The position numbers were made by a program, and so were the translations under genes. The notes beneath the pieces were generated by a model that was given only the letters and a program-made list of their open reading frames with translations, did no database searches and was not told the DNA's origin. DNA of 23,310 bases from a virus (taxonomy: Duplodnaviria; Heunggongvirae; Uroviricota; Caudoviricetes): the IMG/VR virus record IMGVR_UViG_2531839433_000004. One strand, given 5' to 3'. Below are positions 11,193 through 23,310 of the stretch, piece by piece; position 1 is the stretch's first letter; every line of letters starts with the position of its first letter.

Positions 11193-12224
11193 ATGTCCTC
11201 GAATATTTTATCTGGTGAAAAAGTAATCAATAAAATTGCTGAAAAGTTGAGCGATTATAAATATCCTCCGGCTGAAGGTATGAACTCTGAACATGTCAGC
11301 AAATGGATTAAGCAATTTGCAGTGGAGGATAGACGATTTATCTTAGATGAAACGCTTTATCTACTTAATGCAGGTTACCTATCCGAAAGTCAATATCAAC
11401 GAAAAATAAAAGCCATTGCAAGAAGTGAAAAGAACGCGAAATTCTTCAGATATGCAGGTTTTTTAGATATTCAAAAAAAAGGTTCTAGTCAGAAGGAATT
11501 GCTTAAATCTCTTTATGAAACAGTAGGGATCAAATTTAACATCGTTACTGAATCATCAACTCAAGATGAAGTAAATAAATTTGATACATTTGTATATATT
11601 GATGATGTGTCGTTTTCAGGAGAAAAGGCCATCAAATCGATAAGTAATTTTGTTTTAAAATTTAATTTAAGAGATATTAAATTCAATGTATATTTTTTTT
11701 CATCTCATACGTTATCTGACTATAATATAAAAAGACGATTAGAATATATTTTTAAGGATAGAAACATTTTTGTACACGTGAAGAATGGTGGTATGCGTGA
11801 GGTTGAAAACCGAAAAAGTCGTTCTGCTCAATCAGGTGTTTTCTGGCCAAGGAAATATAGTGTAGATACTCCCGAGAAATTCGAGGAGTGTGAGCTTTAC
11901 AAAGGCGTATTCAGAGATGGATATGCCTCTTCTGATAGTTTTAGAAATGAAGCCTCAAGGGATCGTTTCGAATCTATCCTTACTAAAGTCGGCTTTAATA
12001 TCTTGCTGCACAGGAAAACCCCTAGTGAGGTGCTCAAACCTCTAGGTTTTTCTACTTTTGACGGTTTGGGTTTTGGGGGAACAACATTTACTTATCGAAA
12101 TTGCCCGAATAATGTGCCGCTGGCTTTTTGGTGGGGAGATTATGAACCAACAGGTGCTCCCGCATTGGACTGCTGGTATCCACTAATGAAGCGGAATGGG
12201 TATAATGAGTGGTATGAGCTATAG
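11193..12224 (+). CDS. Unrecognised 343-aa protein with a PRTase-like motif, in a low-GC insertion
   Basis: Long ORF in a distinctly A/T-rich block. RBS AAAAGGAA before the ATG. FVYIDDVSFSGEK (aa 133-145) resembles the PRPP-binding loop of type I phosphoribosyltransferases. Rest of the protein not recognised. Confidence 0.6.
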   Translation: MSSNILSGEKVINKIAEKLSDYKYPPAEGMNSEHVSKWIKQFAVEDRRFILDETLYLLNAGYLSESQYQRKIKAIARSEKNAKFFRYAGFLDIQKKGSSQKELLKSLYETVGIKFNIVTESSTQDEVNKFDTFVYIDDVSFSGEKAIKSISNFVLKFNLRDIKFNVYFFSSHTLSDYNIKRRLEYIFKDRNIFVHVKNGGMREVENRKSRSAQSGVFWPRKYSVDTPEKFEECELYKGVFRDGYASSDSFRNEASRDRFESILTKVGFNILLHRKTPSEVLKPLGFSTFDGLGFGGTTFTYRNCPNNVPLAFWWGDYEPTGAPALDCWYPLMKRNGYNEWYEL

Positions 12225-12825
12225 ATTATATCCGCTACAGAACACAGTTTCCTTCAGGAAAACCACCGAAAAATGGGGGGGGCTTTCCAACATGGCTAAA
12301 GGATATCCATTGTTAATCAATGGGTTGCCTATTCAATCAAGTGAAATCCTTTACCAAGCATGCCGATATCCAGACTATCCGGATATACAAAAGGCCATCA
12401 TTACTCAAGGAAACCCCTATGAAGCCAAGCAGACCGCAAGATCGTTTGAATCCAAAACTCGCGCAGGATGGGATAAGAATCGAGTTTCGATTATGAAGTG
12501 GTGTGTATGCGTAAAATTATGCCAGAACTGGGATACGTTCTTTGCGCTGTTAGACAGTACAGGCGACCATTTCATCGTGGAACACTCAGAGAAGGACCAA
12601 TTCTGGGGTGCCAGTAAAGACCCAGAAGGTAACTATTATGGTATGAACGTATTAGGGCGAATTCTCATGGACGTGAGAGGGGTTGCTAGGAAAAAGGGGG
12701 CTGATGGGTTTGCAACAATACCATCGCTATCTTTGGACAAATTTTTTCTCCTAGGCGAAAGAATTAAAGATGTAACATTTGTAGAGCCAACGCCTGGAGC
12801 AGGGCAAAGTTTATCCTTGTTTTAG
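12196..12825 (+). CDS. NADAR-domain protein (YbiA-like N-glycosidase / ADP-ribosyl-base hydrolase family)
   Basis: Recognisable NADAR pattern WGGLSNM, SSEILYQACRY, KTRAGWDKNRVSIMKWCVCVKLCQN, LLDSTGDHFIVEHSEKDQFWGAS, GMNVLGRILMDVR. Overlaps the upstream gene end; start could be the ATG at 12196, 12205 or 12214. Confidence 0.7.
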   Translation: MGIMSGMSYRLYPLQNTVSFRKTTEKWGGLSNMAKGYPLLINGLPIQSSEILYQACRYPDYPDIQKAIITQGNPYEAKQTARSFESKTRAGWDKNRVSIMKWCVCVKLCQNWDTFFALLDSTGDHFIVEHSEKDQFWGASKDPEGNYYGMNVLGRILMDVRGVARKKGADGFATIPSLSLDKFFLLGERIKDVTFVEPTPGAGQSLSLF

Positions 12826-13711: not shown

Positions 13712-14297
13712 TTTGAGAAAAGCAGCGCGTGGTCGGGAATGCCAGGTAAGAATCCCTGGCGTATGTAATGGCAATTCTGAAACGTCTGTACTGGCACATA
13801 TCCGGCTGACCCCACAAACAGATTTCACGCTCAATCTCACGACGAGTCATGAGACCTTTCCATTGCTTACCGCCAGCATATGTCCAGCGACGTAGCTGAT
13901 CACATGCGCCTTTGATATCGCCCTGGTTTATTTTGCGAAGAAGCGTCGATGTTCTGAAATTGCCAGCGCCCACGTTGTAAACGAACGAGTAAAGAGCGCC
14001 GCGCGTTGTTTCCGGTATATCAACTTTTATGTACGGGTTAATTTGTCTGGCGACCGTGGCAAGGTCTTTATTCAGGAGGGCTTTGCATTCTGCTTTGGTA
14101 TACGTTTTACCGAGCATGATGTCTTTTCCTGTATGCCCGTGACATACAGTCCATACACCAACAATATCTTTGTATGGTATGTAGCTGACACCTTCCAGAC
14201 CATCGTTACCACTTGGGCCAGTGATTAACACTGATGCTATAGCAATTGCTCCGCCACCAATAGCAGCAGCAACGGCTTTTCGTAATGATGGAGGCAT
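13563..14297 (-). CDS. R: SAR endolysin (phage 21 R / RrrD-like GH24 lysozyme); the ORF has lost its native stop and runs ~80 codons into antisense nin sequence
   Basis: The first 164 aa [44 protein letters not shown]...CLWGQ match R21/RrrD-type SAR lysozymes (recalled). Sequence after Q164 (13806..13808) is unrelated. Start overlaps the holin stop (ATGA). Confidence 0.85.
13704..13808 (+). pseudogene. ybcO-like nin-region gene truncated after ~35 codons at a rearrangement junction
   Basis: [35 protein letters not shown] matches the YbcO/DUF1364-type N-terminus (recalled). Downstream translation is antisense to the lysozyme gene. Confidence 0.45.
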
Positions 14298-14512
14298 TAT
14301 TCACCTCTCGCAGCCTTGCGCTTATCTTCTTTAATCTTGAAATAAAGGTTTGTCAGGTACGTCAGCAGGCCAAATACCAGGCTACCCAGCACACCTATTG
14401 CTGCCCACTGTGAGGGCGTGACTTTATCGAGCAGCTGTAAAAACCAGTAACCGGCACTACCTGCTGAGGTGCCATAGGCGACACCCGTTGTTAACTTATC
14501 CATGGATTTCAT
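14297..14512 (-). CDS. S: Class II pinholin (S21/EssD-like)
   Basis: [71 protein letters not shown] has two TMDs and a basic C-terminus; near-identical in pattern to S21. Dual-start MKSMDK motif present. The ORF extends upstream to 14557. Confidence 0.8.
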
Positions 14513-15099
14513 AACCCCACCTCGCAGACAAAGCGGGTGTAAATTGAGGGAATACAACGTATCGCAAAAAAGCAGAAACGTAACAGACTCGGAGTCAGTG
14601 AATAACTCAGGTATTGAGTTATCAGCTAATATCGAGACTCAGAAAATGGAAAAACCAGCTCGACGGCGGGTTTAAGCTGTGTGACGAAGTAACCACTCTT
14701 AACAGCATAACCAATTTTTTACGTACGTAAACCACTGAATGATATTTATGAGAATGCTACCGAGTGTTCAAAACACCACCACAAATACATAAGAAAACCT
14801 CAACAAATAACCAATAAATAATTTCAGACGTTATTTTTAGTTGATTTAAATTAAACTGCCGAATTATAGAACCTCCATAAATAACAACCATTAATATAAA
14901 TTAGCTAATAGGTTTATTTTTGTTCAAATAAGAGCCATAAATAGGTTTCGATAGAAAAAGTTCAGATAAAAATAGAGATCTACTTCACAAATTAAATGAG
15001 AAACTAAAACTTACATCTTGAAATAATCACATTGATTAGATGAATATTTATCGCGCAGTGACATCATTTTTTAATAATAGTTCAAAAAAAGGGCTCACG

Positions 15100-16182
15100 A
15101 TGAAAAAATTAACAGTGGCAATTTCTGCTGTAGCTGCATCAGTACTGATGGCGATGTCTGCTCAGGCAGCTGAAATTTATAATAAAGACAGTAACAAGCT
15201 GGATCTATATGGGAAAGTTAATGCCAAGCACTACTTCTCCTCTAATGATGCAGATGATGGTGATACTACTTATGCCCGTCTTGGCTTCAAAGGTGAAACC
15301 CAAATCAACGATCAACTGACTGGTTTCGGTCAGTGGGAATATGAATTCAAAGGCAACCGCGCTGAATCTCAAGGCTCCTCCAAAGACAAAACCCGTCTTG
15401 CATTTGCAGGCCTGAAATTCGGGGACTACGGCTCAATCGATTACGGCCGTAACTACGGTGTAGCATATGACATCGGTGCGTGGACTGACGTTCTGCCAGA
15501 ATTCGGTGGCGATACCTGGACCCAAACAGATGTGTTCATGACTGGTCGCACCACTGGTGTTGCAACTTATCGTAACAACGACTTCTTTGGTCTGGTTGAT
15601 GGTCTGAACTTTGCTGCTCAGTATCAGGGTAAAAATGACCGCACTGACGTAACTGAAGCTAATGGTGATGGTTTCGGTTTCTCCACTACTTATGAGTATG
15701 AAGGATTCGGTGTAGGTGCAACCTATGCTAAATCTGACCGCACTAATAATCAGGTTATCTACGGTAACAACAGCCTGAATGCATCTGGTCAAAATGCTGA
15801 AGTATGGGCAGCTGGTCTGAAATATGATGCGAACAACATCTATCTGGCTACCACCTATTCTGAAACCCAGAACATGACTGTTTTTGGTAATAACCATATT
15901 GCCAACAAAGCACAAAACTTCGAAGTAGTTGCACAATATCAGTTCGACTTCGGTCTGCGTCCGTCCGTTGCTTACCTGCAATCTAAAGGAAAAGACTTGG
16001 GTGCGTGGGGTGATCAGGACCTGGTTGAATATATTGATGTAGGTGCAACCTATTACTTCAACAAAAATATGTCCACTTTTGTTGATTACAAAATCAACCT
16101 GATTGATAAGAGCGATTTCACGAAAGCATCTGGCGTTGCTACCGATGATATCGTTGCTGTAGGTATGGTTTACCAGTTCTAA
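15100..16182 (+). CDS. Outer-membrane general porin of the OmpC/OmpF/NmpC(Lc) family, prophage-encoded
   Basis: Signal peptide [30 protein letters not shown]. Beta-barrel porin hallmarks and C-terminal ...VGMVYQF. AAGGG RBS. The ORF track starts 60 nt upstream, but MKKL is the likely start. Confidence 0.85.
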
Positions 16183-16308
16183 TTTGATTACTAAAAGATA
16201 TGTTGCGGGAGGCTTTGCCTCCCCAACATATAAGTGGCTCCCTCAAGCCACTTCCTTTAGGAGCACAACCTTGCTTCTAACTATATAAACCTTCTGTTAT
16301 ATATTACC

Positions 16309-16340
16309 CTTTATTTTTGGGGGCGTTGCAACGCCCCATT
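16309..16340 (+). terminator. Intrinsic terminator downstream of the porin gene
   Basis: GGGGGCGTTGCAACGCCCC hairpin followed by ATTTTTAATAATTTTT. Confidence 0.55.
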
Positions 16341-16370
16341 TTTAATAATTTTTAGTAAACAATTGGCATA

Positions 16371-16754
16371 TTAATTAGAGTTATTAACAACGATATCCAT
16401 CTCTAACCGGATATCTAATGCCATTAACATCCCTTCAATTATGCCCTCAGCCTTCTGTAACCTTTTCCCGATATAACCATCAGAGCAGCAATGCTTACCT
16501 GCCAGTGACATGAATGTCATACCGACTACATAATAATCTACTAATAAATCGTGCAAATCGCTGCTGTTCTTTTTCAGACGGGCCATGCACCCGCAAATAA
16601 TCATCGCGTCATCGTCACAACATTGCGGGCGAGATTTTACTTTTGAAGTAATTAATCCCTTAAAACCGGCGGCAATGGACGACCAGGTCACATCTTCATG
16701 ATTATTAGCCGCCCACGCTCCCCAACGCTCAAGAACCATCTGAATATCACGCAT
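16371..16754 (-). CDS. Q: Late-gene antiterminator Q (phage 82/QuuD type)
   Basis: [62 protein letters not shown]... matches the DLP12 QuuD-type Q as recalled. Cys-rich zinc-binding segment present. Confidence 0.8.
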
Positions 16755-16820
16755 CAACTTACTCCACAAAAATCAGACCAGAACGCCAATTACAAGCAAA
16801 AATCAACAAAACAGTATTAG

Positions 16821-17480
16821 TTGATTGTTATCTCTGACTTCATACTCCTGCTCCTGTCAGGGTTTTGGCGTAATTCTTCAGTATTCGGTAATCGGTCAAA
16901 ACAGAACCGGGGAAACGATATAAGCGCAGATGCCCCCAGCGGTGGCGAAGAAGTTCTGCCATATAAAACTCAAACATCATTCATTCCCCATTTCGGTGAT
17001 GGTCAGTTCCAGCCTCCCACCTTTGGTATTGCACCGCCAGATATTCCGGTAGGCTTCGTGGCTGTTTTCAACAGTGATGAGGCATCGTGGCATCTCGTTG
17101 AAGATCATCGGGGAAAAACCGTCTATGACGTGGCTTCCGGCGACTCGTTATTTATTTCTGAACTCGGACCTCTACCGGAAAATATCACCTGGTTATGCCC
17201 GGAAGGGGAGTTTCAGAAGTGGAACGGCACAGCCTGGGTGAAGGATACGGAAGCAGAAAAACTGTTCCGGATCCGGGAGGCGGAAGAAACAAAAAACAGC
17301 CTGATGCAGGTAGCCAGTGAGCATATTGAGCCGCTTCAGGATGCTGCAGATCTGGAAATCGCAACGGAGGAAGAAACCTCGTTGCTTGAAGCCTGGAAGA
17401 AGTATCGGGTGTTGCTGAATCGTGTTGATACATCAACTGCACCTGATATTGAGTGGCCCGCAATCCCTGTTATGGAATAA
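16821..17480 (+). pseudogene. Tail fibre assembly (Tfa) protein homologue, probably a 5'-altered remnant with no ATG start
   Basis: C-terminal ~150 aa ...[52 protein letters not shown]...[11 protein letters not shown] match the lambdoid Tfa family. The N-terminal 60 aa are unrelated and the frame opens with TTG. Confidence 0.6.
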
Positions 17481-17840
17481 TAGTTTTGTGATATGCCGCA
17501 GAAACGTTATATGCAATAACGTGCTGCGGTTGGCTGATGTACTTTCGAGAGTGTATTGAATAATTTCCAACCGTCATTAATTTTATTTATTTTTTGTATG
17601 AGAGGATTTGAACCTCCGAGCCTCGACACCTTATGACAACGCGATATTGCCTTGATGACCGCCATGTGCCAAAATAACCAATTGATAAATAAGTTGATTT
17701 TAATTGGTTGGAAGCAAGTCAGGTCAAATTCAGCATTCCGCTCTCTGTATCGGATAGTTAAATTTTTCTATAACTGATAGTAATATGTTAAAACTCACAC
17801 AGATAAATTATCATTGCTCAACAAGTATAATGGAGTTCCC

Positions 17841-19796
17841 GTGGATACAGCAGAACATGATGGCAAGTTTGCTTGGGCTAGTTTTTATGAGGCTTTTGCC
17901 AACGCGTTACTGACTTGGCGAAATCGTAGAGATGAATTAGTCAAAGGTATTCATCTAATTGCCTCGGGTGTGGAAGGAATGTCCCATCTGCAGGACAAAT
18001 CTATTATGGGAGAGATCTTTCCCTTAAAAGACATTTGTCCGTTTACTACTATGGGCTTGTTCAATCGTAACTTGACCGACAGCAATCGCAAAATTATTGC
18101 TGCCAAGCTAGCGAATTTGTTGGGCGTGAACGAACCGATTCCTGACTCCTTTGCCGGAATCCCTCTGTTGAATAACCAAAAATCTTGGTTCTTTGGTTAT
18201 GAAAAGTCACGCGACCCTAATGACATTGAATGCTTGTGGGAAATGTTCTCACAGGCAATGACCTTTGCGGATAACCAGAATACTAACTCTGCAGACTTCA
18301 CTGCCGCATATGACATCGCTTCTACAGTAATGAATGTCGGTTGGAATCTCACCATGGGGTTGTACTGGACCCGTCCTTGGTTCTACCCCACTTTAGATAG
18401 CCAGTCGCAGTATTACATTCAGACAGTGTTAAACATTAAGATCATTAAAAACGGGGCAAAAGGTCGCTGTAGTGGACAAAGTTACCTGAGTCTTATGCGG
18501 GCGCTGAACGAGGTCTTTACCCAACCAAACTATCCGGTTCATTCTTTCCCAGAACTTTCCTTATCAGCGTGGAATACAGATCTTAGCCAGTCTAAAGATG
18601 AGGTGGCAAATAGAACGTGGAAAGCCTCTTTACTGAATAAAATTAAGGCGTTATGCCTGAAAAAAAATGGCCCTTATTTCACTGCTTCGGAGTTGGAAGA
18701 AAACTACTTGGACGTTTTCAAGGTAGAGCATCCTGAGAGCAAAACTGTTACAAGCTCAATCTACTTTTATCTACAGAAACTATGCAATGATGATGAGTTA
18801 AAGTCCCTCGAGTCCGGAAATTATGAATACCTGAATTTTGAGAAAAACGAATCCCAGACGATAACTGAGGAAACTGTCGAAGAGAGTGCGCTGTCGCCAA
18901 AACTCACCCACGTTCCTTATGATATCAGTCATCTGGTGCAGGATGGCTGTTTCTTGGAAGAGGCTAAGATCCAACTCACACTTCAGCGCCTGATCGACAA
19001 GAAAAACCTGATATTACAAGGACCACCCGGAACTGGAAAAACTTGGTTAGCGCGACGTCTGGCGTACTGCTTGATGGGAGAAAAAGCACCTGAGCGTATT
19101 AGCGCGGTGCAATTTCACCCGAACCTCTCTTACGAAGACTTTATTCGCGGCTGGCGTCCAGGTAAAGAAGGGCAATTGACGCTAATTGATGGACCTTTTG
19201 TAAATGCAATCAAAACTGCAGTCAATAATCCTACCTCGAAATATGTGGTGATAATTGAAGAGATTAATCGTGGCAATCCGGCGCAAATCTTCGGTGAAAC
19301 ACTCACGTTGATGGAAGCAGATAAACGCACGCCGACTGAGGCATTATCTCTTTCCTATCCTAAAAATGCTGATGAAAAAATATACATTCCTGAGAATCTA
19401 TATATCATCGGTACGATGAATATTGCAGACCGCTCACTCGCACTACTTGACCTAGCGCTGCGCCGTCGTTTCGCGTTTATCGATCTAAAGCCAGCTTTTA
19501 ATGACGCGTGGAGAAACTGGGTAAATTATAATTACGCAATTGATTTTGACATGTTAGCATTCATCAAATCTCGACTGACGGTATTAAACGATATGCTGGC
19601 AAAAGATGTTACCTTAGGACCACAGTTTTGTATCGGTCACAGCTATGTCACCCCAGCTATCGGCCAAAAAATCAACGATGCCCAGGCTTGGTATGAACAA
19701 GTCGTTGATACAGAGATCTGCCCTTTGCTCGCCGAATATTGGTTCGATGCTCCAAATAAAGTCGATGAAGCCAGAAAAGTGTTATTAGCAAAATGA
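17841..19796 (+). CDS. mcrB: McrB-like AAA+ GTPase with a ~390-aa unrecognised N-terminal domain
   Basis: C-terminal half carries Walker A LILQGPPGTGKTW, VVIIEEINRGNPAQIFGE, and IIGTMNIADRSLALLDLALRRRFAFIDL, as in E. coli McrB. GTG start at 17841 with GGAG 5 nt upstream; the ORF track opens at a TTG at 17814. Confidence 0.85.
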   Translation: MDTAEHDGKFAWASFYEAFANALLTWRNRRDELVKGIHLIASGVEGMSHLQDKSIMGEIFPLKDICPFTTMGLFNRNLTDSNRKIIAAKLANLLGVNEPIPDSFAGIPLLNNQKSWFFGYEKSRDPNDIECLWEMFSQAMTFADNQNTNSADFTAAYDIASTVMNVGWNLTMGLYWTRPWFYPTLDSQSQYYIQTVLNIKIIKNGAKGRCSGQSYLSLMRALNEVFTQPNYPVHSFPELSLSAWNTDLSQSKDEVANRTWKASLLNKIKALCLKKNGPYFTASELEENYLDVFKVEHPESKTVTSSIYFYLQKLCNDDELKSLESGNYEYLNFEKNESQTITEETVEESALSPKLTHVPYDISHLVQDGCFLEEAKIQLTLQRLIDKKNLILQGPPGTGKTWLARRLAYCLMGEKAPERISAVQFHPNLSYEDFIRGWRPGKEGQLTLIDGPFVNAIKTAVNNPTSKYVVIIEEINRGNPAQIFGETLTLMEADKRTPTEALSLSYPKNADEKIYIPENLYIIGTMNIADRSLALLDLALRRRFAFIDLKPAFNDAWRNWVNYNYAIDFDMLAFIKSRLTVLNDMLAKDVTLGPQFCIGHSYVTPAIGQKINDAQAWYEQVVDTEICPLLAEYWFDAPNKVDEARKVLLAK

Positions 19797-20914
19797 CGAC
19801 AATAACCGGGAGTGAGCAACATACAGCATCACGTATTCCCATGCGAAATATCTGGATGCTGATGCTGTACGCTTCAGATCTGTTTCGCCAGTTAGGGCGC
19901 AATCAGATCGCAGTAGAAGATAACCCAGCAGAAATCCCCGACCTGGTGGCGACAATCCTCCTTCATGAGATTACGCTGCGCCGACGTCGCAATTTAAATA
20001 TGGGATACCAAACTTGTCATGCGGCCCTGAACCGGGTGAGAGGGCGCATTGACATACTGTATACTGCCAGTCATCAACTGCTGGAACGGGGACAGGTTGC
20101 CTGCCATTTTCAAGACATAACCCTCAACACCCCCCGAAATCGCTATGTTCGCTGTGCGTTAGAACGTCTGGCCTCAATCATAGTGAAACCGTCTTTGGCG
20201 GCAGATTGCCATTTTATGGCAATATCACTTCGCCGTGAGGGGATAAATGGAGGATATCCTGCCCCCCACGAATTACCCTCAGTGTGGCGTTTTGGACGCC
20301 ATGATGCCGCAGATAAACCGATGGTCGATGCCGCACGATTAGCTTTTGAACTGCTGATGCCGACCGAAGATCAAGGCCAATATCTTTTACCTGCGCCCTC
20401 AAATAACCTTTACTGGATGAGAAGACTATTTGAAAAAGGTATCGCTGGCTTATATCGTGTACACCTTGACAAAACAACTTGGCAGGTCTCTGCAGGGAAA
20501 GAGCTGAAATGGGCGTTGAGCGATCAAAGTGCAGGTAGTGCAGAGATTTTCCCGACAATGAAGTCAGACATTATTCTGGAACACAAGACTGCCCAGCGGC
20601 GTATTATTATCGATACCAAATTTAATTCGATTCTGACAAAGGGTTGGCATCGGGAGCAATCACTACGTAATGGCTATATTTATCAGCTATATACCTACCT
20701 TAGAACACAGGAGAACAAGACGGATCCGCTTTCGCTCAATGCCGCTGGTCTTCTACTTCATCCAGCTGTTGGCTATATGCTTAATGAGTATGTTGTCACT
20801 CAGGGACATAAGATCCATTTTGCTACAGTAGATATGACGGTAGATGCTAAAGCAATTAAAAAACAATTGCTGGCAATAGCCCATGATTGTGCAGGAGTCG
20901 CGGTTGATGACTAA
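19793..20914 (+). CDS. mcrC: McrC-like PD-(D/E)xK nuclease subunit
   Basis: Start overlaps the mcrB-like stop (ATGA, translational coupling). The segment RRIIIDTKFNSIL...YIYQLYTYL is consistent with the McrC nuclease core. Confidence 0.8.
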   Translation: MTTITGSEQHTASRIPMRNIWMLMLYASDLFRQLGRNQIAVEDNPAEIPDLVATILLHEITLRRRRNLNMGYQTCHAALNRVRGRIDILYTASHQLLERGQVACHFQDITLNTPRNRYVRCALERLASIIVKPSLAADCHFMAISLRREGINGGYPAPHELPSVWRFGRHDAADKPMVDAARLAFELLMPTEDQGQYLLPAPSNNLYWMRRLFEKGIAGLYRVHLDKTTWQVSAGKELKWALSDQSAGSAEIFPTMKSDIILEHKTAQRRIIIDTKFNSILTKGWHREQSLRNGYIYQLYTYLRTQENKTDPLSLNAAGLLLHPAVGYMLNEYVVTQGHKIHFATVDMTVDAKAIKKQLLAIAHDCAGVAVDD

Positions 20915-21614
20915 CCATCCTATAGGGCACTGGCTGTAATATAATCAATAGTTTCAATTAAGTAGCTGTTATCCGTGCTTAGTCATCATATGACGCACCA
21001 CGGTCTAATTTTCCTGCTCATACATTGATATATCCTTGTCGTGCCCGGAAAGTCGCAGTCCACTATGAGGTATACCGATTGCCAGCACCAAAAGCTTCTT
21101 TGTGATTATTATATCGGGGAATGCCTATTTTTTTAGTGACAATATCAGATAGCAATTAATAAGCGGTGCCGGTAATGGATGTTATGTTTAATGTATAGAC
21201 ACAGCCATCATAAACTAAACGTCTGTTGTTCGCTCATAACCGACATTTATCTCAGTTATGGAGGATAATTATGTATGCAGATAATGGGGCAGACAGTCGT
21301 GGAGTAAACAAGGTTTTGCACTGCTTGGCGGCATCGTTATCTTATTTTTAATTATGTGCCTCTTAACATAAGTTGGGACAAAACAGAGACACATAAGGTC
21401 TCACAAAGGTCTGCAAGGCCTCACATGTATTGAGATGTTAATAAAATGTAGACTTGTAATTTGGATATAAATGGTAGAGAAAACCTTTCCCCAAAATAAA
21501 AACGAACGTCAATGAAATCAAACGGTTGAATAAAGTTAATTTTGGCTAATAAAAAGACAATAAAATAATTTTTATCATTAAATATCAATGACTTGAATTC
21601 ATGGTTTTTATATA

Positions 21615-21779
21615 CTGCTGCGCCATATGGGTTGGACTGAAGCGGCTGACCTGATTGTTAAAGGTATGGAAGGCGCAATCAATGCCAAGACCGTAACTTA
21701 TGACTTCGAACGTCTGATGGAAGGCGCTAAGCTGCTGAAATGTTCAGAGTTTGGTGAAGCGATCATCGAAAACATGTAA
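21615..21779 (+). pseudogene. icdC: 165-bp 3' fragment of icd (isocitrate dehydrogenase), icdC-like, marking the prophage/host junction
   Basis: Translates to [54 protein letters not shown], the ICD C-terminus. Upstream sequence lacks icd homology. Confidence 0.85.
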
Positions 21780-21802
21780 TCTCTCCATGTGTTAAATATT
21801 GA

Positions 21803-21834
21803 AACGGGCGTATAACACGCCCGTTGTTTTATTT
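21803..21834 (+). terminator. icd intrinsic terminator
   Basis: AACGGGCGT-ataac-ACGCCCGTT followed by GTTTTATTT. Confidence 0.6.
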
Positions 21835-21881
21835 ATGTGGATATTATTAATAGCATATCGAGCATATTTATATGAAGCCCA

Positions 21882-22205
21882 TTACTTGAGCCCATATGGG
21901 CATATTTTTATAATGCAACTATTATGTAAACATTTATTTGTTATTTTGCTTTCTCCTGGAGGACACTCTTGACTGCTTTTGAGTAAACTCCATAAATCCT
22001 TGTTGAATGGTGCGATGTGATAAATAGTAATAGGATATTCTTTATCCTTAAGGATAATACCAGACTTAACCGGTGTAAATATACTGCCAGGAGGGAGAAA
22101 TATAGTAGATTGATACCAGATGATCATTTTCATATTACCCCATATGGCTGAAAAAGATATACCACATGTAGGTTGAATTACCGTGTCAATTACTATCCAC
22201 TTCAT
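21882..22205 (-). CDS. iraM: Anti-adaptor protein IraM (RssB inhibitor)
   Basis: 107-aa [41 protein letters not shown]... matches E. coli IraM/YcgW as recalled. A/T-rich gene. Confidence 0.75.
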
Positions 22206-22645
22206 TTGTTATGTCTTATCCCACGGTATTTAATATGGTTCATTAGGATGTTTATTTCTTGATTTTGCATATGAGTATATTACCCCCCCCCTCAAAAAAA
22301 TAAATTAATTAAAATGATGGCTTATATAAAATAAAATTTAAAGCAAGGAATCTCAATGGATGTTAAACAAAATGAGATTTTGTGAAAGCAATAAATTATT
22401 GACTTCGTTTTAGATTTGTTTAGCTATAATGTTATACATTCAAATGACTGAACATCCTGTAATTAAAACATAGCCTTTATGCTACTTTGTGCCAATTTGC
22501 TAAACATTATGGTTGCCTTTTTATATAACGATAATAATGAATATAAGCATGACATGAGAATAAGGTTTCAATTTTTGAGTTATATAGGAATGATTTAACC
22601 TGTTCCTGGCTAAAATACATATAACCGGATGATGACTAAACCAAA

Positions 22646-22700
22646 ATACATGTGCGTTAAGTATTGAAACGGACGTGTGGCACGGCCGTTGTTTTTATAA
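22646..22700 (+). terminator. Degenerate second copy of the icd 3' end and terminator hairpin
   Basis: CATGTGCGTTAAGTATTGAAACGGACGTGTGGCACGGCCGTTGTTTTTAT aligns with CATGTGTTAAATATTGAAACGGGCGTATAACACGCCCGTTGTTTTAT at 21786..21832. Confidence 0.45.
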
Positions 22701-22905
22701 ATATGTTAACCGTTATAAAATAACGTATCAAAAGTCAAGTGATCACATTTCAAATATCAAGTTGATAGTATTAGTCTGGTGATTATTTATGGGTGACAAT
22801 AAAAAGACAGTATTAATCATCCATAGAGATAGTCTCTGCACTTTTATTTCCATTATGCTAATGCCTTACTGAATTATGAAGCATTTCTTAAGTATCCAAC
22901 TTTAG

Positions 22906-23310
22906 CTAGATTAATGGTTTATTATTTTCTACATCTTCAATATATAAAAGCGTATTATCAATGGCGTAGTAACTGCGTTTGTTATGATTAACATCAGTAA
23001 CCCACCGGAAAACGCCCGCGCCTGCCAGTGTTGAACAGTATTCCCGAAATGTAGATTTTCCGCAAATATGAAGCAATGCGGCCTCTTTTATTTTAGCAGG
23101 GTTCTTGGTCGTACTAACTTTTAACAGGTTCCTGGTTCCTCTTAATAACAAAACCGTATCATCGTGAGTAATAATTCTGATGTTATCCGTAGCCAGATAA
23201 TAAATGTAATGTGCAATACGGTGATGTTTTAATTCTGAATAAAACCAGGAGAAGTTTTGCTCTTTTCTCACTTGCTCAAACATCTTTTGAAAAACAACGA
23301 CCTGATCCAT
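22906..23310 (-). CDS. ycgX: YcgX (DUF1398-family) host protein
   Basis: 134-aa MDQVVVFQKMFEQVRKEQNFSWFYSELKHHRIAHYIYYLATDNIRI... matches E. coli YcgX as recalled. Start codon sits at the window edge. Confidence 0.75.
   Translation of the reverse strand: MDQVVVFQKMFEQVRKEQNFSWFYSELKHHRIAHYIYYLATDNIRIITHDDTVLLLRGTRNLLKVSTTKNPAKIKEAALLHICGKSTFREYCSTLAGAGVFRWVTDVNHNKRSYYAIDNTLLYIEDVENNKPLI

Follow-up and report, generated by a model that had tools for sequence, protein, structure and literature searches.

At its right end, the defective prophage that fills most of the 23,310-nt stretch of viral DNA analysed here (the window) gives way to a short fragment of icd, the gene for isocitrate dehydrogenase. 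The locus raises three connected questions: to the base, where does the prophage stop; is the fragment the host's own icd end or a copy that came with the phage; and which element was it that integrated? A preliminary description made from the letters of the window had read the fragment as the 165-bp displaced 3' end of icd, put attR at about 21615, expected an intact icd with attL just left of the window, and drawn a parallel with e14 and phage 21. Our comparisons indicate that 21616–21832 is almost certainly the bacterial (B') half of an attR whose prophage, a defective lambdoid element of the phage 21 type, lies inside icd.

The icd fragment and the attR junction

We compared the whole window by blastn with the icd gene of NZ_CP025859.1, the genome that matches the window. 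A single significant match was obtained, in which icd nt 1088–1251 align to 21616–21779 (93.3% identity, E = 2e-66); there was no second icd match anywhere in the window, every other blastn match having E ≥ 0.78. Base 21615 is C in the window and A in icd, so nucleotide homology begins at 21616. The abrupt start noted earlier is therefore real, but its first homologous base lies one position further to the right. The length of 165 bp holds as a count of whole codons, from CTG at 21615 to TAA at 21777–21779, and equals the annotated length of K-12 icdC. Translating 21600–21840 in frame yields the C-terminus of isocitrate dehydrogenase, 54 residues that match positions 301–348 of 348 of Pfam Iso_dh (PF00180; E = 4.9e-6, 26.5 bits against a cut-off of 27). 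Only the last 48 profile positions are covered, rather than a full-length Iso_dh domain above the curated cut-off, and the score falls just short, as is expected of a fragment. PGAP labels it an incomplete dehydrogenase with its N-terminus missing. The displaced native icd end is thus a pseudogene fragment at 21616–21779 on the plus strand, with in-frame codons from 21615.

Homology between the icd copies continues past the stop codon to 21832, and the direct repeat common to attL is therefore 217 bp long (21616–21832, plus strand), made up of icd 3' coding sequence, 3' UTR and terminator. The native icd intrinsic terminator (21803–21835, plus strand), found by a terminator scan and by folding, has a 9-bp stem, a 5-nt loop and a T-rich tail; the hairpin at 21803–21825 is followed by GTTTTATTTA and folds at −20.7 kcal/mol (z = −4.9). 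It is identical to the terminator of the unoccupied locus. Homology does reach the icd stop and terminator, as first described, and the end then given, 21834, is about right, the match ending at 21832, beyond the terminator hairpin. No Rfam RNA family was found in or near the att region.

To define the phage side of the junction, we aligned attB, attL and attR together with two attP sites from free phages; the switch from P arm to icd falls between 21615 and 21616. This agrees with the position of about 21615 proposed for attR. The right prophage boundary is 21615/21616 to the base, and native chromosome runs from 21616 on. The rightmost prophage DNA is the P arm of attR (21361–21615, plus strand), which has 92–94% identity to the left arms of phage attP sites, i.e. 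to the DNA that immediately precedes the icd-like segment in phage 21 (OL657228, M61865), 4A7, 3W, ev017 and others. Of 5426 complete E. coli genomes, 1466 (~27%) have a P arm of the 21 type, nearly always adjoining an annotated icd fragment, and 496 cover window 21400–22100 to at least 80%. Within the P arm, TCCCCAAAA at 21488–21496 (plus strand) is a predicted arm-type Int-binding motif. It is the only exact copy in the window, is conserved in the attP of phage 21 and 4A7, and recurs three times in the P' arm beside int, at the place of the annotated sites P1P2P3 of the phage 21 record (consensus YYTTCCCCAAAA); these motifs would be expected to bind Int.

Strand exchange is placed inside the core segment TGCTGCGCCA (21616–21625, plus strand), bounded on the left by C versus A at 21615 and on the right by T versus C at 21626, the first mismatch between attL and attR. 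The position equivalent to 21626 is T, not C, in free phages 21 and 4A7, and the 10-bp bound therefore requires that the attL C arrived with the phage; had that C arisen later, the crossover segment could reach 21637. The identity segment at the core is 10 bp in the matching genome, and free phages are identical to attB for up to 67 bp right of the junction. Comparing both ends, the approach proposed at the outset, did recover the shared TGCTGCGCCA; sequence bounds the 7-bp overlap no more closely than the segments just given.

Native and phage-borne icd copies

NZ_CP025859.1 agrees with the window at every base up to 22290, and it extends further to the left (window position x is position x + 4323 of its locus, L001). 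The only difference across the whole window is a poly-C tract at 22283–22291, between iraM and ymgK, where the window has C9, against C8 in NZ_CP025859.1 and K-12. The int reading frame has its last base at window position 1, and an intact 416-codon icd ends 114 bp to the left of that position; this icd has a phage-type 3' end, after which come three arm-type repeats and int. The full-length icd with a phage-derived 3' end and the attL expected next to the 3' end of int are thus present, seen in NZ_CP025859.1 and not in the window itself. The attL side (icd 3' end, P' arm and 3' part of int) shares 98.1% identity with AF017626 and ~97% with those free lambdoid phages that have an icd-like segment beside int. 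At the C-terminus of the working enzyme, GDAIIKNM stands in place of the native GEAIIENM, a difference of two substitutions (E410D and E414K).

At attL, the repeat (L001 4047–4263) aligns with the window copy without gaps and with 15 mismatches in 217, and homology is lost sharply at both edges. In the terminator of the attL copy, the 5-nt loop (L001 4243–4247, outside the window) reads GTTAT, against ATAAC in attB, attR and the free phages; the stem is intact and the loop change is an exact inversion.

The two copies are 93% alike, and a single genome cannot tell which of them is native. The assignment could in principle be reversed, with 21616–21779 borne by the phage and the intact icd retaining its native 3' end, the more so as, counted in differences, the attL copy is no nearer to phage 21 than it is to the native form: it is a mosaic that differs at 20 positions from phage 21, 15 from native, 13 from 4A7 and 10 from ECOR38, the closest. 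We therefore turned to unoccupied loci. A hypothetical empty site was assembled by joining the 300 bp of icd that precede the core to window 21616–21915 and was searched for in the 5426 complete E. coli genomes. Four genomes with one copy and a contiguous icd–iraM carry it at 100% identity over 600 bp. In an eight-way alignment the window's 217-bp segment showed 0/217 differences from the unoccupied attB and 0/217 from K-12 icdC, the remnant of a different element, e14, as against 15 when compared with the working icd of NZ_CP025859.1 at its 3' end. This identifies the remnant as the original icd end of the host. Bases 21698 and 21731 separate the native sequence from all five phage-borne copies. 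The attL copy carries the phage-specific state at both and, like the other 21-type copies, is additionally non-native at 21758, 21768 and 21785. Contiguity points the same way, the fragment adjoining chromosomal iraM just as at empty sites and the attL copy adjoining the phage P' arm and int. The empty-site comparison rules out the reversed assignment, to which we give next to no credence, and it bears out the displaced original 3' end of the preliminary description.

The same comparison bears on whether a phage need be invoked for the fragment at all. Duplications and IS-mediated rearrangements can yield short gene fragments, and this prophage is heavily rearranged, so the remnant might be imagined to stem from a partial duplication nearby or from the decay of an icd paralogue, with the prophage boundary elsewhere. 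However, icd homology begins at exactly the base where phage attP homology ends, deleting the DNA between the two cores restores the natural locus exactly, and the same P arm recurs in the 1466 genomes almost always next to an icd fragment. With the empty site reconstructed, a local duplication is ruled out and has a negligible probability. We thus keep to a displaced host end at attR. Among the features that mark such a site, an icd fragment at the crossover position, a native flank, a P arm, an attL with full-length icd and a 21-type integrase were found.

In the arrangement that best explains these observations, the attP of the incoming phage would hold, between its core and int, a copy of its own of the last 164 nt of icd together with the icd terminator. 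Int probably catalysed the exchange at this core, within the at most 10 bp of TGCTGCGCCA (21616–21625). At attL the exchange would fuse the body of the host's icd with the 3' end brought by the phage, so that isocitrate dehydrogenase stays full length, and the chimeric enzyme is presumably active. At attR the same exchange would strand the host's 3' end and terminator behind the P arm, with no promoter, start codon or N-terminus. These steps follow the established lambda-type model and the e14 work summarised in PMC13626634.

Integrase, element identity and fate of the remnant

The left edge of the window holds the 3' part of a phage 21-type int (1–452, minus strand), in which 147 of 150 residues equal phage 21 Int 231–380 and which PGAP labels a partial tyrosine recombinase. 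The 5' part lies at 1763–2456 (minus strand), with 230 of 232 residues equal to phage 21 Int 1–232; the two fragments have 98–99% identity to phage 21 Int. Between them, a 1310-bp IS3-family insertion sequence (453–1762, minus strand) splits int at about residue 231. It is recognised by 25-nt terminal inverted repeats and an annotated IS3-family transposase, has TAT on both flanks and contains an Rfam ALIL frameshift pseudoknot at 1311–1427. An excisionase gene follows at 2446–2682 (minus strand; PGAP), with the position and length of xis in phage 21 and 4A7. Because the insertion splits int, the prophage, ~21.9 kb between the two cores and defective, is predicted to have lost self-excision. 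Its loss from the chromosome would need either helper Int/Xis or homologous recombination across the 217-bp, 93%-identical repeats.

We also considered whether the remnant came from an e14 element, as in K-12. Both elements use the same attB and core and leave the same 165-bp icdC-type remnant, and from icdC on, 21613–23310 is 99.9% identical to K-12. The resemblance ends at the core. To its left, the P arm of the window cannot be aligned with that of e14, whereas it aligns with those of phage 21 and 4A7; the integrase is 98–99% identical to Int21, to which IntE of e14 is only 60% identical; and the P' arm repeats read TTCCCCAAAA, not the TTATCAAAA of e14. Neither an e14-type P arm nor e14-type repeats nor IntE was found, and the prophage interior (window 1–21612) gave no blastn match to the K-12 e14 region at E up to 1e-10. 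The P-arm and Int comparisons rule out e14, which we regard as a scarcely credible source, and the element behind the attR remains a phage 21-type prophage. Of the two systems named as parallels at the outset, both indeed use icd, but the element is of the phage 21 type and not e14.

Whether the stranded icd end is expressed is a separate matter. An internal ATG at 21627 opens a 50-codon frame that is annotated as a CDS in some phage records. Readthrough of the rightmost prophage operon could then produce a C-terminal isocitrate dehydrogenase micro-protein that interferes with the enzyme or its regulation. This is very unlikely: no Shine–Dalgarno-like sequence precedes the ATG at 21627, promoter-like matches are at chance level (6 found against 5.1 expected, including a −10-like TATACT at 21611–21616), and the GenBank record of phage 21 states that its icd-like pseudogene is not expressed, all of which leave the micro-protein without support. 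A likelier role for the remnant would be in recombination, with RecA deleting the int-dead prophage via the diverged 217-bp repeats and making chimeric icd alleles. For annotation, the 54-codon icd-like ORF is best labelled a pseudogene fragment, with the cargo genes on its left assigned to the prophage.

Cargo, flanks and relation to known elements

The first chromosomal gene right of the prophage is iraM (21882–22205, minus strand; by annotation), which directly follows icd in unoccupied genomes. In two other genomes with a 21-type attR (L008 and L009), the icd remnant is directly followed by ymgL, with no annotated iraM, so that the chromosomal flank to the right of attR varies among genomes too. 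Directly left of the attR P arm, 17814–20914 encodes an McrBC-like pair made up of an AAA_5 ATPase and an McrC-family protein; the ATPase has 660 aa, and no Pfam family matches its first ~380 residues. The same slot beside the P arm holds mcrA in e14 and sitABCD in phage 4A7; of three further 21-type genomes inspected, two have sitABCD and the third has the same McrBC-like pair as here. This looks like a variable cargo slot beside attP.

Further into the prophage, a low-GC (31–32%) pair of genes at 11193–12825, between the replication genes and ybcN/ninE, encodes PRTase-CE (343 aa) and NADAR (209 aa) proteins with weak PADLOC matches to PRTase_III-A and PDC-M42C, and may form a module for defence or counter-defence. 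The late region (13806–16980) is rearranged: a truncated rrrD, essD, quuD and ylcG lie on the minus strand, and an ompC/nmpC-like porin gene sits on the plus strand amid this inverted Q/lysis block. Head and tail genes are absent from the prophage annotation, save for a tail-fibre-assembly ORF, and inside that ORF lies a full-length match to Rfam IS009 (RF02111; 17239–17437, 213 bits).

The attachment arrangement in icd was described for e14 in 1988–89 and for phage 21 in the 1990s. It is already known, and the present locus adds nothing biologically new to it. Phage 21 has the same order of elements in its attP/int region (OL657228, M61865), namely P arm, core, 165-bp icd-like segment, terminator, three arm sites, int and xis, and its GenBank record annotates the same ICDH-like pseudogene, the terminator and the attP arm sites. 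Its P arm is 92% and its Int 98–99% identical to those of the window. The two differ in that phage 21 presents a free-phage attP, whereas the site here is split into attL and attR, with the host's own icd-like segment at attR; the window prophage is moreover defective and carries other cargo.

The ECOR38 prophage AF017626, deposited as an icd partial cds and an int pseudogene in two pieces, covers the attL side only, with 10/217 differences in the phage-borne icd segment. It is collinear and gapless with the attL–int region of NZ_CP025859.1, with 99.2% identity over 2662 bp that span the IS. This collinearity across the insertion argues that the window element is probably the defective prophage already deposited from ECOR38, and the defective prophage appears to be a lineage shared vertically or horizontally. 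The att/int module with an icd-like segment beside int also occurs in NC-SV, 4A7, 3W, ev017 and others, which are intact phages, unlike the window prophage; NC-SV of strain NC101 is integrated at the phage 21 site in icd (PMC12803456).

The closest likeness to the remnant itself is K-12 icdC (b4519), at the right end of the cryptic prophage e14, which shares the attB inside icd, the 165-bp codon-rounded remnant and iraM as the next gene. The e14 core, ATGCTGCGCCA, is 11 bp long and has one more base in common with attB than the core here, and its P arm, arm-type repeats and integrase all differ. PMC13626634 describes e14 as flanked by icd and icdC, gives its chimeric icd enzyme as active on the evidence of Hill et al. 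1989, and reports for e14 deletion by RecA with formation of chimeric icd alleles.
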